A DNA stretch of 64,000 bases from Ferruginibacter sp. (GTDB lineage Bacteria > Bacteroidota > Bacteroidia > Chitinophagales > Chitinophagaceae). The stretch is from contig JAYVPT010000040.1 in assembly GCA_043757165.1 (NCBI GenBank), positions 60,786-124,785 of the forward strand, read 5' to 3'. The notes under the pieces are model-generated. The model did no database searches and was not told the DNA's origin. It saw only the letters and a program-made list of their open reading frames with translations. A program made the translations under genes and the position numbers. Shown one piece after another: positions 22,677-61,700 of this stretch; position 1 is the first letter of the stretch; each line of letters begins with the position of its first letter.

Positions 22677-22877
22677 AGATTACACGATTAACACGGAAAA
22701 ATACAATCACCGTTTGAATTGCTAAATAGTTTTTGAATTGAAAGCGATGAACAAAGGTATGCCGTACAAGGGAGTGACACAACGATGCTGCTATGAAAAA
22801 CAAATGATTGTCAAATAAAAATGAATTAGTTTGAAAAACTAATTAAAAAAATCTGTGCAAATCTGTGTAATCCGTGG
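22673..22877. repeat. Inverted-repeat-bounded (REP/MITE-like) element
   Basis: Arms 22673-22697 and 22852-22877 match at 21 of 26 aligned columns and are built from CACAGATT-like units. Confidence 0.6.
22752..22795. repeat. Dispersed promoter-bearing repeat, copy A
   Basis: caaaggta-tgccgtacaagggagtgaca-caacgatgctgctatg; 26/32 identical to copy B over the core. Confidence 0.7.
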
Positions 22878-22883
22878 CAAAAC

Positions 22884-24533
22884 TTATATCATTTCACTCT
22901 GCAACAACGGGTTTTTTACCGCATCTCTTTTTTCGGCAAAAGCTTTTGCTGCTTTTACAAAATGCACAAATATGGGCTGCGGATTTTCCACCGTACTTTT
23001 TAATTCGGGGTGGTATTGCACACCAATAAAAAACGGATGGTTGGGCAATTCCACAATTTCTACCAGTCCGCTTGCAGGATTTTTACCGCTTGGTATTAAT
23101 CCGGCGTTTTCAAAATCAGAAATATATTTATTGTTAAACTCCCAGCGGTGCCTGTGGCGTTCGCTGATGTTGGTTGTACCATAAATACTATGAGCTAAAG
23201 TATCTTCCTTAATCTGGCAGGGATAAGCCCCCAGGCGCATAGTACCGCCTTTTGCAGTAATATCTTTTTGTTCATCCATTAAGTCAATTACAGGATGTGC
23301 AGTGTCTTTCACCATTTCGGTTGAATTGGCATCAGCCCAGCCCAGCACATTTCTGCCAAATTCAATTACCGCCATTTGCATGCCCAGGCAAATACCAAAA
23401 AAAGGAAGGTTGTTTTCCCTGGCATATTTTACAGCAGTTATTTTGCCTTCCACACCACGGTTGCCAAAACCCGGAGCAACAAGCAAGCCATCTAACTTGC
23501 TCAGTTTTTCTGCCACATTATCTTCGGTAATGGTTTCGCTGTGTACATCCACCACTTTTACTTTACACTCATTGATGGCACCGGCATGTACAAAACTTTC
23601 TAAAATAGATTTGTAGGCATCCTGCAGCTCAATATATTTTCCAATTAAGCCAATGGTAACTTTTGTTTTAGGGTACTTCAACTTATCTAAAAACTCACGC
23701 CATTTGGTTAATTCAGGTGCAGCATAACCATTGATCTGTAATTTTTTCAATACAATAAGGTCCAGGCCTTCCTGCAGCATCATTAAAGGCACTTCGTAAA
23801 TACTGTTGGCATCCATTGCTTCTATAACAGCATTGGGTTTTACATTACAGAATAAGGCAATCTTCTTTTTAATCTCATTATTCAGCGGTTGCTCGGTACG
23901 GCAAACAATAACATCGGGGTGTACACCTTCCTGGCTAAGTAAACGTACACTGTGTTGTGTAGGTTTTGTTTTTAATTCTTTAGCAGCACTTAAATAAGGT
24001 ATTAAGGTAAGATGCACCACCATACAATCTTCTTCGGGCATTTCCCATTGCAGCTGACGTACCGCTTCTACAAATGGTAAACTTTCAATATCACCCACGG
24101 TGCCACCTAATTCGGTAATAATAATATCATACTTCCCTTCTTTGCCCAACAGTAACATGCGGCGTTTTATTTCGTCGGTAATATGTGGAATTACCTGAAC
24201 AGTTTTGCCCAAATAAGCGCCTTCACGTTCTTTATTAATTACGGTTTGATAAATGCGGCCTGTGGTTACATTGCTTGCCTGGGAGGTAGGGGTATTTAAA
24301 AAACGTTCGTAGTGGCCAAGGTCCAGATCAGTTTCCGCACCATCATCGGTTACAAAACATTCGCCGTGTTCGTAGGGATTCAATGTTCCGGGATCTACAT
24401 TAATATATGGGTCAAATTTCTGGATGGTTACCCTTAAACCCCTTGCCTGCAAAAGCTTTGCAAGAGATGCGGCAATAATTCCTTTGCCTAACGAACTGGT
24501 TACACCACCGGTAACAAAAATGTACTTGGCCAT
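22884..24533 (-). CDS. pyrG: CTP synthase
   Basis: [29 protein letters not shown] and QYHPE motifs. Confidence 0.98.
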
Positions 24534-24871
24534 TGTCATAAATTATAAAGTAATTAATTAAATTTTATTTTTTTTGGGACGGGCTGCAAAATAAAAATCA
24601 TCATCGTTGCGAACTTTGTTCTGTTCTTATTTTCTTTTAGTACAAGGAAATAAGAATCACACTTGAACTATATTCCGATATTCAACAAAGCGAACCAACA
24701 ATAACAAATAAAATGCTTAAAAAACTGATTGTTTAATCCTATCCTTAAGTGACCAGAGGAAGAAATTTGAAAAGGAACTCCGAGAGGTCGTGTAAAGATA
24801 GGGCGATTATTTGGGAGGAGGAAATTTGAAGGAAAGATTGTGGAAAAATGGTAAAATTGCTTATAATTCAC

Positions 24872-25939
24872 ATGATGAGAACTTTAATTGTAATCCTTTT
24901 ATTTATTCCGGTTATAGCTTTTTCCCAGCATGTAAAGCCTGATGTTACAAATCCGGATGGCCTGCCGGAAAAGAAATTTGATCTTTCGGTTAAAAAAATT
25001 GCCCCGGGAGAAATCAAGTTTCCTTTCTCATCAATTAAAATTATAGATAACCGGTTTGATACCTCAAAACTTGGTTTTGTTCCCGTTTACCAACTTATAG
25101 CCAATAAAAAAACTGTTGGAAGAAAAATGATATTTAAAAATGGCATTGCCCCTGCATTAGAAAAATATTATAATGAATTTTATCAAAATGCATTTACAAG
25201 CGGTGATATTAAACTTTTAATTGTTTTAAAAAAATTTTGGTTCTCAGGAATTGACAATGAGAAGAACAGGGAATTCGACATTTTACAAAATGGAAAGTCC
25301 CGAAGTTTTCTATACTGCAAATGGGAGTATTATTTTATTAAAGGTGATGTATTTATGCCGGTACAACGAATAGATACGGTTATAAATGGAGTAACTTTTG
25401 AATCAGAAATTAATGAAAATAGATTTAGGACTAACAAGAAGATTTTTAAACTAATTTTAAATGGATTACTTGAAGTGTTTGATTTTAATGCTGCATTAAG
25501 TAAAATAGAAAAATTACCTAAAAAGACATGGGCTGATATTCAACAATACAATGCATCTTATTATAATATCCGGGTGTTAAAAGATAGTGTATTGCAGAAA
25601 GGAGTGTATAAGAATTTCAATGAGTTTAAAAATAACACGCCTTCAATTGTAAATTTTAAAGAGGAAAAAATTCGGATCAGGTTAAACCAATATGAAAATT
25701 ATATTGAAGATTATAAAGGAAACCGGATAACAAATTATTGGGGATATTTTACTGGCGTAGCATTGAAGATTGGTAAATATGGAAATGAAAAGGTATACCG
25801 CAAAAACAATACATTTGAATTTTTTATTCAACAACAATACCTTCAGAATAATATTGATTTATTTGGCGGGAATAATTATAAAGAAAAAGAAGTTTGGATT
25901 CCTTACCAAATAGATATGGAAAACGGCTTAATTTATTAA
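24872..25939 (+). CDS. Hypothetical secreted protein (AT-rich)
   Basis: Signal peptide MMRTLIVILLFIPVIAFSQ; overlaps the proC stop by 4 nt (convergent). Confidence 0.7.
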   Translation: MMRTLIVILLFIPVIAFSQHVKPDVTNPDGLPEKKFDLSVKKIAPGEIKFPFSSIKIIDNRFDTSKLGFVPVYQLIANKKTVGRKMIFKNGIAPALEKYYNEFYQNAFTSGDIKLLIVLKKFWFSGIDNEKNREFDILQNGKSRSFLYCKWEYYFIKGDVFMPVQRIDTVINGVTFESEINENRFRTNKKIFKLILNGLLEVFDFNAALSKIEKLPKKTWADIQQYNASYYNIRVLKDSVLQKGVYKNFNEFKNNTPSIVNFKEEKIRIRLNQYENYIEDYKGNRITNYWGYFTGVALKIGKYGNEKVYRKNNTFEFFIQQQYLQNNIDLFGGNNYKEKEVWIPYQIDMENGLIY

Positions 25940-60333: not shown

Positions 60334-61545
60334 TTATGCCACCGCTTTATTTACTAACGCTGCAGCTTCGCTCAATAAAATAGCACTCTGTACTTTCAAT
60401 CCGCTTTCGTCAATTAATTTTTTTGCAACATCGGCATTGGTACCTTGTAAACGCACAATAATGGGGATGTTGATATTGCCGATACTTTGGTAAGCATCAA
60501 TAACACCCTGCGCCACACGGTCGCAACGAACAATACCACCAAAAATATTAATCAATATCGCTTTTACTTTCGGGTCTTTTAAAATAATGCGGAAACCGGC
60601 TTCTACTGTTGGTGCATTGGCAGTACCGCCCACATCTAAAAAGTTGGCGGGCTCGCCACCACTTAACTGTATCATATCCATTGTTGCCATGGCAAGGCCT
60701 GCGCCGTTAACCATGCAACCCACGTTGCCATCTAATTTTACAAAGTTCAAATTAAATTTTCCGGCTTCCACTTCGGTAGGATCTTCTTCGCTTATGTCTC
60801 TTAATGCGGCAACATCTGCATGGCGCATTAAAGCATTATCATCAATACTCATTTTACAATCTACCGCAATAATTTTATCGTTGCTGGTTTTAAACAAAGG
60901 ATTTATTTCCAGCATGGCACAATCAAGGCCAACATAAGCCGCATATAAATTGGTTACAAATTTTACGCAGCTTTTAAAAGCATCTCCGCTAAGGCCAAGG
61001 TTAAAAGCGATCTTCCTTGCCTGGAAAGCCTGCAGCAATCCACCGGGGTGTATCCACTCTTTAAATATTTTTTCGGGTGTATCATGTGCCACGTCTTCAA
61101 TGTTCATTCCGCCTTCGGTACTGTACATAATAACGTTCTGGCCTTTTGTACGGTCCAATAAAATTGATAAGTAAAATTCTTTTACAGGGCTGTTGCCTTC
61201 GTAATATACATCCTGTGCCACCAATACTTTGTTTACCAGTTTACCCGCAGGCCCGGTTTGTATGGTAACCAATGTGCCGCCTAAAATATTCTGGGCAATT
61301 TGTTTTACATCTTCTGCATTTTTACCAACAGCCACACCACGTTGTTCGGTACCGGCAATTTTTCCTTTACCACGTCCGCCGGCATGTATTTGCGCCTTTA
61401 CCACGGCAAACCTGCTGCCATATTGGGTATGTATCTGGCGGTACGCTTCTTCTGCTTCGGTGGGTGTATTACAGGGTATGCCTTCCTGCACGGGAACATT
61501 GTATTTTTTTAATAATTCCTTGGCCTGGTATTCATGAAGATTCAT
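60334..61545 (-). CDS. sucC: Succinyl-CoA synthetase beta subunit
   Basis: MNLHEYQAK, KAQIHAGGRGKG, CMVNGAGLAMATMD and NIFGGIVRCD motifs. Confidence 0.98.
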   Translation of the reverse strand: MNLHEYQAKELLKKYNVPVQEGIPCNTPTEAEEAYRQIHTQYGSRFAVVKAQIHAGGRGKGKIAGTEQRGVAVGKNAEDVKQIAQNILGGTLVTIQTGPAGKLVNKVLVAQDVYYEGNSPVKEFYLSILLDRTKGQNVIMYSTEGGMNIEDVAHDTPEKIFKEWIHPGGLLQAFQARKIAFNLGLSGDAFKSCVKFVTNLYAAYVGLDCAMLEINPLFKTSNDKIIAVDCKMSIDDNALMRHADVAALRDISEEDPTEVEAGKFNLNFVKLDGNVGCMVNGAGLAMATMDMIQLSGGEPANFLDVGGTANAPTVEAGFRIILKDPKVKAILINIFGGIVRCDRVAQGVIDAYQSIGNINIPIIVRLQGTNADVAKKLIDESGLKVQSAILLSEAAALVNKAVA

Positions 61546-61578
61546 AATTAAATAAATTTTTGCGAAGATAAGAAAAGA

Positions 61579-61610
61579 GTTTAGAAGTTTAGGGGTTTAG
61601 AAGTTTAGGA
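61579..61610. repeat. Tandem 8-mer repeat GTTTAGRR x4
   Basis: gtttagaa gtttaggg gtttagaa gtttagga. Confidence 0.75.
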
Positions 61611-61642
61611 TTTTTATGTTACGGGCATTTATTTTTCAATTT

Positions 61643-61700
61643 AGCATTCTTGCGTCGCACTCTTGTACTGCATACCATTGCTGAATTTTTATCAAAGCGG
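61643..61700. repeat. Dispersed promoter-bearing repeat, copy E
   Basis: On the + strand: TTG-cgtcgcactcttgtactgca-TACCATTG; 47/58 identical to copy B. Confidence 0.8.

Follow-up and report, generated by a model that had tools for sequence, protein, structure and literature searches.

A 64,000-nucleotide stretch of DNA from Ferruginibacter sp. (Bacteroidota, Chitinophagaceae; contig JAYVPT010000040.1), here called the window, carries several copies of a dispersed repeat that an initial annotation had described as a mobile mini-element delivering housekeeping promoters to neighboring genes. Our results suggest that the repeat belongs to an old, Chitinophagaceae-wide family of unstructured intergenic elements of about 85 bp that were spread by copying, have the shape of a promoter, and probably send transcription outward from one end, called here the head; the opposite end is marked by a run of T residues. 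Judging from sequence, we give this reading as a whole a probability of about one half. The family is apparently without a published description, and no account of an 85-nt repeat of this kind was found in the literature searched.

Searching the window with the 19-nt core GTACAAGNGTGCGACGCAA and allowing at most three mismatches yielded four matches, at 22764, 39189 and 60214 on the forward strand and at 61650 on the reverse strand, where 0.01 were expected. These correspond to copies A, B, D, and E, and together with the weak copy L, which was recovered with nhmmer, they make up five window copies at a profile E-value of 0.01 or less, the same five that had been reported (Table 1). On the strand on which a promoter would be read, all five show T(T/G)G, 20 nt, and TA(C/T)C(T/A)TTG, exactly as claimed, and the 47/58 identity between B and E was reproduced in an ungapped register. 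The sites had been placed correctly; the lengths given were too short, since each copy extends over about 85 nt. Copy L is a weaker member of the recurrent variant TKGCGACGCTCCGTTCA, and the same core is found in three loci of related genomes (L030, L077, and L123). The possible sixth copy at 33699-33729 was not detected at an E-value of up to 50 with all filters off; instead, a disrupted copy absent from the initial annotation, copy F, was found at 24566-24700, and from reading its sequence we consider its core to be split by an insertion of about 46 nt.

The neighboring genes had also been assigned correctly: A points to trmH, B to an open reading frame (ORF) of 143 amino acids (the "first orphan"), D to an ORF of 203 amino acids, E to the gene for a PNP/UDP phosphorylase (PNP), and L into the 3' end of the first orphan. 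The 203-amino-acid ORF, which is separated from sucC by D, gave no Pfam hit. As stated previously, B and D are located directly behind terminators, namely the queA and sucC hairpins, and in both cases the T-run of the repeat doubles as the tail of the terminator. According to Pfam, the window otherwise contains housekeeping genes, SusC/SusD genes, and type IX secretion tails, as is ordinary for a chromosome of Bacteroidota.

We then sought to learn how widely the repeat is distributed. An exact scan with the core GCGTCGCACNCTTGTRCNNNATAYC, made with one genome per species, yielded at least 116 genome stretches, all of them from genomes of Chitinophagaceae or Chitinophagales, including Ferruginibacter, Terrimonas, Niastella, Chitinophaga, Filimonas, Parafilimonas, and Phnomibacter, with several stretches coming from a single genome. 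Loci L027 and L053 contain copies from Terrimonas rubra KCTC 23299. The repeat is not special to the genome of the window but is an old element of the whole family. A profile built from the core-anchored copies and run on 866 kb of these loci plus the window detected 194 copies; not counting the anchors, additional copies occur about once in every 11 kb. In carrier genomes, this corresponds to about one copy per 10-13 kb and, by extrapolation, to an estimated total of hundreds of copies. In four metagenomes holding the window, the read depth over D and E was 400-480 compared with about 35 nearby (10-13 times the flanks), and metagenome contigs break at repeat copies; about 40 contigs carry the element in a run that names one organism as its source and has no recorded library type. 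The repeat also accounts for the intergenic breaks in assemblies of carrier genomes.

The boundaries of the element were defined with 121 anchored copies: conservation extends from a T-run 42 nt before the core to about 38 nt past the core start, and the information content outside these limits is zero. The consensus reads TTTTTTTG-nnn-CCnGGC-(~20 nt)-AGCWTC-nTT/TG-GCGTCGCACnCTTGTAC-nnn-ATAYCwTTr-nn-sAnCTTT, corresponding to a T-run, CCnGGC, AGCWTC, a TTG at -33, a 17-nt spacer core, a -7 box, and CA/GA-n-C, in that order. The spacer core is near-invariant and contains the palindrome GYGWCRC, the -7 box is variable, and CA/GA-n-C is conserved. The T-run belongs to the element regardless of the sequence upstream. 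It lies within 10 nt of a stop codon in 27 of 106 copies, and where it lies 20-160 nt from the stop, about one third of the T-runs are preceded by a strong hairpin. Placement is almost strictly intergenic, and the 75 downstream proteins fell into 69 clusters.

Three variants of the core, each found repeatedly in many genomes, are present side by side in the window: v1 (TTGCGTCGCACnCTTGTAC; copies B, D, and E), v2 (TTGTGTCACTCnCTTGTAC; copy A), and v3 (TKGCGACGCTCCGTTCA; copy L). Three linked changes separate v2 from v1, and through two of them both CpGs in the palindrome are converted. Of 171 copies, 153 had C/G at palindrome positions 3 and 7 and 18 had T/A; intermediates were absent. Subfamilies also share bases past the common right end at unrelated loci (CTTTAATTGCG, CTTTTATCAAAGCG, and CTTTACCTGCAAT). 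By comparison of the copies, such linked changes and additional flanking bases at unrelated loci show that the family was spread by copying and not by convergence. Orthologous conservation as the source of the similarity was rejected because the downstream genes differ. Mean pairwise identity was 0.665 within genomes and 0.619 between genomes.

Relatives of the window differ in whether they carry the repeat at a given site. Eighty sucC loci of relatives contained 11 hits in 421 kb, and both D and E are missing from the four closest sucC loci sampled (93-96% SucC identity); two of these four (L117 and L118) keep the divergent arrangement of PNP and sucC and the own -7 boxes of both genes. Among more distant lineages, five have copies resembling E, placed and oriented as in the window, and three have copies resembling D; the two occur independently of each other, with core variants that are mixed or decayed. 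Six queA loci of relatives (93-95% QueA identity) contained no copies, and so neither B nor L; the window's QueA shares 95% identity with proteins from Ferruginibacter, and in four of the six loci, with the same 95%-identical QueA, a different ORF of 170 amino acids fills the gap between queA and an Mpo1-like gene. In addition, a minor variant in the metagenomes of the window itself skips positions 61576-61727, which removes E. Comparison of these loci shows that the element was gained and lost between related genomes.

Two further features were observed in the intergenic region between sucC and PNP. Short tandem TTTAGAAGTTTAGG units lie beside E, and GAGGTTTAAGAG units are found upstream of sucC in L117; these tandem repeats occupy the variable part of the region. 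Immediately upstream of the sucC ATG there is a TATCTTCG box with a short leader, which takes the conserved form TAT[CT]TTCG both in the window and in all nine relatives read (L117-L122, L124, L134, and L189; 84-96% SucC identity). This box, one position off TAnnTTTG, is probably the native sucC promoter.

In Bacteroidota, the sigma-A promoter has a TTTG at -33 and a -7 box, TAnnTTTG, that spans positions -12 to -5 (PMC9723704). From this span, the conserved sAnC of the repeat would lie at -2 to +2, conservation would end at about +8, and the repeat would cover positions of about -75 to +8. Well-formed copies resemble a canonical sigma-A promoter in having the -33 TTG, the 20-nt spacer, the -7 box, and a purine start in register; unlike ordinary sigma-A promoters, they have an invariant spacer of 17 nt and CCnGGC and a T-run at fixed distance, and across the family the -7 box is the least conserved block. 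In the window, the -7 boxes of A and D match TAnnTTTG exactly, while those of B, E, and L have one mismatch (TAnnATTG). Upstream of the window genes, TAnnTTTG was found 18 times in sense and 5 times in antisense orientation, and trmH and the 203-amino-acid ORF each have a single TAnnTTTG in the 220 nt upstream, namely the box inside A or D, respectively. The right half has the geometry of a Bacteroidota sigma-A promoter, but the term "housekeeping promoter" is not supported for the family, in which only 13 of 144 copies have a canonical box and 39% of copies face gene 3' ends. Nor is E needed for PNP, which has its own conserved box 26 nt before the ATG, kept in relatives lacking E.

Other known promoter classes were considered and rejected. 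For a sigma-54 or extracytoplasmic function (ECF) sigma factor promoter, the GG-N10-GC spacing does not fit on reading the sequence, and CCGGGC and CGTC are 27 nt apart. Promoters of tRNAs or stable RNAs were rejected because none of the 16 tRNAs in the loci is located downstream of a copy. Targets of RNA-guided dCas12f-sigmaE are few, locus-specific sites per genome, upstream of susC-type transport operons (PMC13472631), and were rejected because of the wrong copy number (estimated hundreds here) and gene context (every kind of gene).

The element is polar in the direction proposed by the initial annotation, and its orientation is not random. Among 152 classified copies, 68% occupy co-directional, 16% convergent, and 15% divergent intergenic regions, with 70 sense and 34 antisense copies in co-directional gaps, 25 in convergent gaps, and 23 in divergent gaps. 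Altogether, 93 of the 152 copies face a gene start and 59 (39%) a gene 3' end. A strict -7 box was found in 12 of 88 copies facing a start and in 1 of 56 facing a 3' end (Fisher p=0.016). The genes on the two sides also differ in size, with medians of 354 amino acids on the T-run side and 249 on the head side (Wilcoxon p=4e-4). On the head side, the median was 255 amino acids where a start is faced and 237 where a 3' end is faced; on the T-run side, it was 354 after a 3' end and 355 facing a start.

Neighboring copies are arranged in a nonrandom way as well. Two copies in one convergent gap stand head-to-head, each T-run abutting a stop codon, and pairs less than 300 nt apart were nine times in "+-" and never in "-+" order; these nine head-to-head pairs enclose nothing. 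Adjacent pairs overall (loci L002-L116 with at least two copies, plus the window) were inverted in 61 and direct in 17 cases. For neighbors in different gaps, the counts were 35 inverted and 9 direct, compared with 21.1 ± 3.4 inverted expected from a simulation that respects gene orientation. Head-to-head pairs enclose either nothing or one small gene of 135-222 amino acids, and the enclosed small genes are mutually unrelated. Tail-to-tail pairs are never less than 1.3 kb apart and enclose large genes; in the window, A and F flank pyrG tail-to-tail, as D and E flank sucC. Facing pairs are two separate copies and not arms of one element. A cassette of element, gene, and element moving as a unit was rejected because the genes enclosed head-to-head are unrelated, and it is also countered by homologues of the 143-amino-acid ORF that occur elsewhere without the element and by the independence of D and E in relatives. 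In one relative (L134:2791-3020), downstream of sucC, there are two head-to-head copies about 30 nt apart, each truncated just past the core, which together form a near-perfect 20-bp inverted repeat.

These patterns could arise if transcription leaves the head, at least in copies that keep a good -7 box, which would be the source of the polarity. Output from the head would mostly be a liability managed by selection: heads would be kept off large, presumably important genes and aimed at small genes or at one another, and strong -7 boxes would be purged where the head faces a gene 3' end, avoiding antisense RNA. A minority of copies may have been recruited as working promoters, with A for trmH as the best candidate and D and B perhaps serving their ORFs. 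The T-run end would be harmless or useful, often completing the terminator of the upstream gene.

Several observations weigh against this reading, beginning with promoter activity itself, which we infer from the promoter-like boxes. Across the family, a strict -7 box at the right spacing is present in 13 of 144 copies (9%) and a loose one in 47, while 84 have none. In 79 copies that had not been selected for their -7 box, this block is low in information, and conservation remains high in the T-run, CCnGGC, and the core. It is the spacer that is conserved most, and sigma-A is not known to read it; a protein or a copying machinery may constrain the spacer core. The co-orientation upstream of a gene that is expected of a sigma-A promoter does not hold family-wide, given that only 93 of 152 copies face a start, and the repeat is not simply the promoter of the genes that it faces. 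Convergent gaps are not depleted compared with divergent ones (25 and 23 copies), which argues that there is no strong selection on antisense output. The excess of inverted neighbors is only loosely explained by transcription from the heads, and is not properly explained by the alternatives discussed below either.

Of the proposed mobile mini-element, what stands is a dispersed repeat family with sharp ends and unrelated flanks that is present or absent at orthologous sites; its movement is deduced, and the usual marks of mobility are lacking, which also counts against our reading. No terminal inverted repeats were found, as the T-run and CCnGGC of the left end are unrelated to the sAnCTTT of the right end. 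There was no target-site duplication, the longest string shared by left and right flanks having a mean length of 5.23 compared with 5.12 in shuffled pairs, and no hairpin. Near-identical copies were not found, the best within-genome pair being 91.5% identical (0.915). No mobilising gene, and specifically no RAYT (IS200-like) gene, was present among the 275 ORFs that flank copies in the 116 loci and the window (117 sequences in all) or among the 50 window ORFs scanned against Pfam, which include no transposase or integrase, in agreement with the earlier statement that the window lacks a mobilising enzyme. An autonomous parent element or transposase beside the copies was rejected because no protein family recurs among the 275 flanking ORFs and because a flank comparison revealed no longer shared flank pointing to such an element. 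MITEs were rejected since the ends are not inverted repeats and there is no target-site duplication, and a phage origin was rejected because no viral contig in IMG/VR matched the core exactly.

As a rival explanation, the repeat could be selfish or a fossil and have no promoter activity. The boxes would then be incidental in AT-rich intergenic DNA, and the source of the polarity would be either the insertion mechanism or the T-run end, which may act as a terminator tail or attract insertions behind genes. The T-run is indeed part of the element whatever lies upstream and in many copies abuts a stop codon or a terminator hairpin; the poor conservation of the -7 box, the 39% of copies facing 3' ends, and the separate promoter of PNP point the same way. 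However, conservation ends just beyond the predicted start, where the conserved CA/GA-n-C sits, canonical -7 boxes are enriched (8.7-fold by our figure) where a gene start is faced, and trmH and the 203-amino-acid ORF have their only TAnnTTTG within a copy. We consider a repeat devoid of promoter activity rather unlikely.

The strong conservation of the core raises another alternative, namely a regulon-type cis-element in which the core, CCnGGC, and the T-run form the docking site of a lineage-specific DNA-binding protein and are kept by function. Candidates are a global regulator and a nucleoid-associated or architectural protein, which would act over the -33 box and spacer or organise DNA. 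The core is 0.85 identical whether copies are compared within or between genomes, while the flanks reach only 0.48-0.64, symmetric palindrome positions covary perfectly, and there is no RNA structure. Copies beside sucC occupy the same place and orientation in several lineages with differing downstream genes, and an orthologous pair (L063/L069) keeps the block of T-run and CCCGGCC and the core, although the intervening sequence has diverged. The inverted-neighbor excess could reflect pairing of bound sites. On the other hand, a binding site does not predict similarity over 85 nt or the incidental flanking bases shared by subfamilies, the flanking genes are of every kind, and most sampled relatives have no copy at sucC (11 hits in 421 kb) or queA (none in six loci). 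Orthologous copies that had not been selected for their core show decay in it (L124 and L127), and the contrast between core and flanks is partly a matter of ascertainment because the copies were found through their core, which takes some force from both our reading and this one. Overall, we consider conservation as a regulatory site rather unlikely as well. It is a decidedly doubtful proposal that the core is the recognition site of a sequence-specific machine such as a recombinase, an RNA-guided protein, or an architectural protein. If it were, the inverted neighbors and the size rule for T-run and head sides would amount to a genome-wide partitioning or insulation of transcription units in Chitinophagaceae, and the pattern would not be the passive decay of a selfish repeat.

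Finally, the many intergenic copies with a core conserved across genera might represent a transcribed RNA element (a multi-copy small RNA, a leader, or a motif of 3' untranslated regions) or a DNA uptake signal. The "dialects" and the inverted pairs behind genes resemble those of uptake sequences, and in one RNA-labelled metagenome run with the core, searched with a consensus-like query, two contigs of low depth cross it, giving no direction. No RNA run was found to contain the window. Against this, RNAalifold predicted 0 pairs on the sense strand and a stem of 4 pairs on the antisense strand, and mean folding z-scores were +0.22 and -0.43. Rfam gave 0 matches at gathering score over the whole window, and at an E-value of up to 10 only chance-level hits on terminators. 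An RNA motif was consequently rejected, as neither strand has a consensus structure and Rfam contains no matching family, and so was a small peptide encoded on the opposite strand, since on direct reading the variants do not share conserved frames. Uptake signals are 9-12 nt long and common inside genes, while this element has 85 nt and is almost strictly intergenic; furthermore, we know of no competence in Chitinophagaceae. Functions of this type are highly improbable.

The copied, promoter-shaped repeat that we favor has partial counterparts among known systems. Putative mobile promoters, as described by Matus-Garcia, Nijveen and van Passel in 2012, are defined by at least 80% identity over at least 50 nt, and for most of them a mobilisation route is not established (PMC3575422). 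Like them and like the Correia elements of Neisseria, the repeat places homologous upstream sequence before non-homologous genes within and between genomes, is shared across genera, and carries outward promoter-like boxes, which here are predicted. B and E reach 81% over 58 nt before unrelated genes, but most other pairs are below 80%, with a mean pairwise identity of 62-67%, and at least a third of the copies are not directed at a gene start. The repeat has neither the terminal inverted repeats nor the TA target duplication of Correia elements. What is new in comparison with both is a family without inverted ends, target duplications, or structure that covers a full promoter span, extends over the whole Chitinophagaceae, and follows orientation rules.

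REP sequences, including the CGTC-tagged ones, are stem-loops, and CGTC-type REPs have no dedicated transposase (PMC3733652). As in the REP/REPIN/BIME group, there are hundreds of intergenic copies (estimated here), often just behind genes, head-to-head dimers predominate, the distribution among relatives is patchy, and the core contains CGTC. Unlike REPs of 20-40 nt, the element has 85 nt and forms no stem-loop on either strand, its palindrome of 7-9 bp being too short and loop-less, and membership in REP/REPIN was rejected because there is no stem-loop of at least 8 bp (0 sense and 4 antisense pairs by RNAalifold). It also resembles the BOX repeats of streptococci and the ERIC repeats of enterobacteria, which are intergenic, about 100 nt long, and present in old, diverged copies whose mobility is not established. 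BOX and ERIC repeats influence the expression of neighboring genes, have extensive secondary structure, and are transcribed as RNA, whereas the family described here is without secondary structure.

To our knowledge, promoter-carrying dispersed repeats are one of the few routes by which bacteria can quickly rewire expression, and almost nothing is known about them in Bacteroidota. The family is unusual in being abundant, conserved across Chitinophagaceae, unstructured, and shaped as a complete sigma-A promoter region. With an estimated hundreds of copies per carrier genome, it would constitute a natural experiment on what a Bacteroidota promoter needs and on how stray promoters are tolerated, the relation of orientation to gene size and gene ends being a possible fingerprint of such tolerance. 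Genetic tools for Chitinophagaceae might use well-formed copies as candidate portable promoters, and the inverted-neighbor excess could point to a new mechanism at the DNA level.

The initial annotation had further suggested that the repeat may switch on newly acquired genes. The first orphan is instead a rare but conserved gene: about 10 homologues were found in 5.8 billion proteins, with 64-78% identity, and since most of them have 166 amino acids, its true start is possibly further upstream. The encoded protein is hydrophobic, and homologues are found in three other, unrelated contexts, none of them flanked by the repeat, which indicates that the block of B, ORF, and L, between the conserved queA and Mpo1-like genes, is a variable island and not a travelling cassette. 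Activation of a new gene by the repeat is possible at this locus, but as a general rule the idea finds no support.

Table 1. Copies of the repeat and associated features in the window.
Feature	Position	Strand	Sequence features	Search result	Context
Copy A	22742-22823	-	variant v2 (TTGTGTCACTCCCTTGTAC); promoter-like core 22752-22782; canonical -7 box TACCTTTG 22752-22759	nhmmer E=1e-10	between pyrG (22884-24539) and SpoU/TrmH gene (22128-22676, -); head 75 nt from trmH start
Copy F	24566-24700	+	disrupted copy		upstream of pyrG; T-run beside pyrG start
Copy F, left half	24566-24611		T-run, CGGGC, up to cgTTGCG	nhmmer model positions 5-52, E=0.001	
Copy F, right half	~24658-24700		CACACTTGAAC...CAACAAAGCG	nhmmer model positions 56-86, E=3.4	
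Copy L	38455-38541	+	variant v3 (TGGCGACGCTCCGTTCAAC); core 38498-38528; -7-like box TATCATTG 38521-38528	nhmmer E=6e-4 to 8e-3	head directed into 3' end of 143-aa ORF
Copy B	39165-39249	-	variant v1; core 39177-39207; -7-like box TACCATTG 39177-39184		head ~170 nt from 143-aa ORF; T-run is tail of queA terminator hairpin (39244-39271)
Copy D	60188-60275	-	variant v1, TGG at -33; core 60202-60232; canonical -7 box TATCTTTG 60202-60209		head 137 nt from 203-aa ORF (59453-60064, -); T-run is tail of sucC terminator hairpin (60272-60299)
Copy E	61608-61693	+	variant v1; core 61650-61680; -7-like box TACCATTG 61673-61680		T-run end ~62 nt from sucC start; head toward PNP/UDP phosphorylase gene (61794-62606, +)
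PNP own -7 box	61760-61767	+	TACCTTTG		outside the repeat
143-aa membrane-protein ORF (first orphan)	38572-39003	-		no Pfam hit	enclosed head-to-head by L and B
Second conserved motif	38345-38367	-	AATCCAATATCCTATGAAAAACC		after GGGCCnGATAnAAATCCnGCCCC hairpin
GC-rich hairpin	~38368-38400	-			just upstream of AATCCAATATCCTATGAAAAACC
Tandem units	61580-61607	+	TTTAGAAGTTTAGG		beside E
sucC box	61563-61570	-	TATCTTCG		immediately upstream of sucC ATG

A second conserved motif, AATCCAATATCCTATGAAAAACC, was observed behind a GC-rich GGGCCnGATAnAAATCCnGCCCC hairpin and is identical in several genomes, with further occurrences at L113:7405-7427, L197:5056-5078, and L202:4187-4209. Possibly a leader or a repeat linked to terminators, it is located upstream of the Mpo1-like gene in the window and in L197-L200, and in L202 it follows queA.

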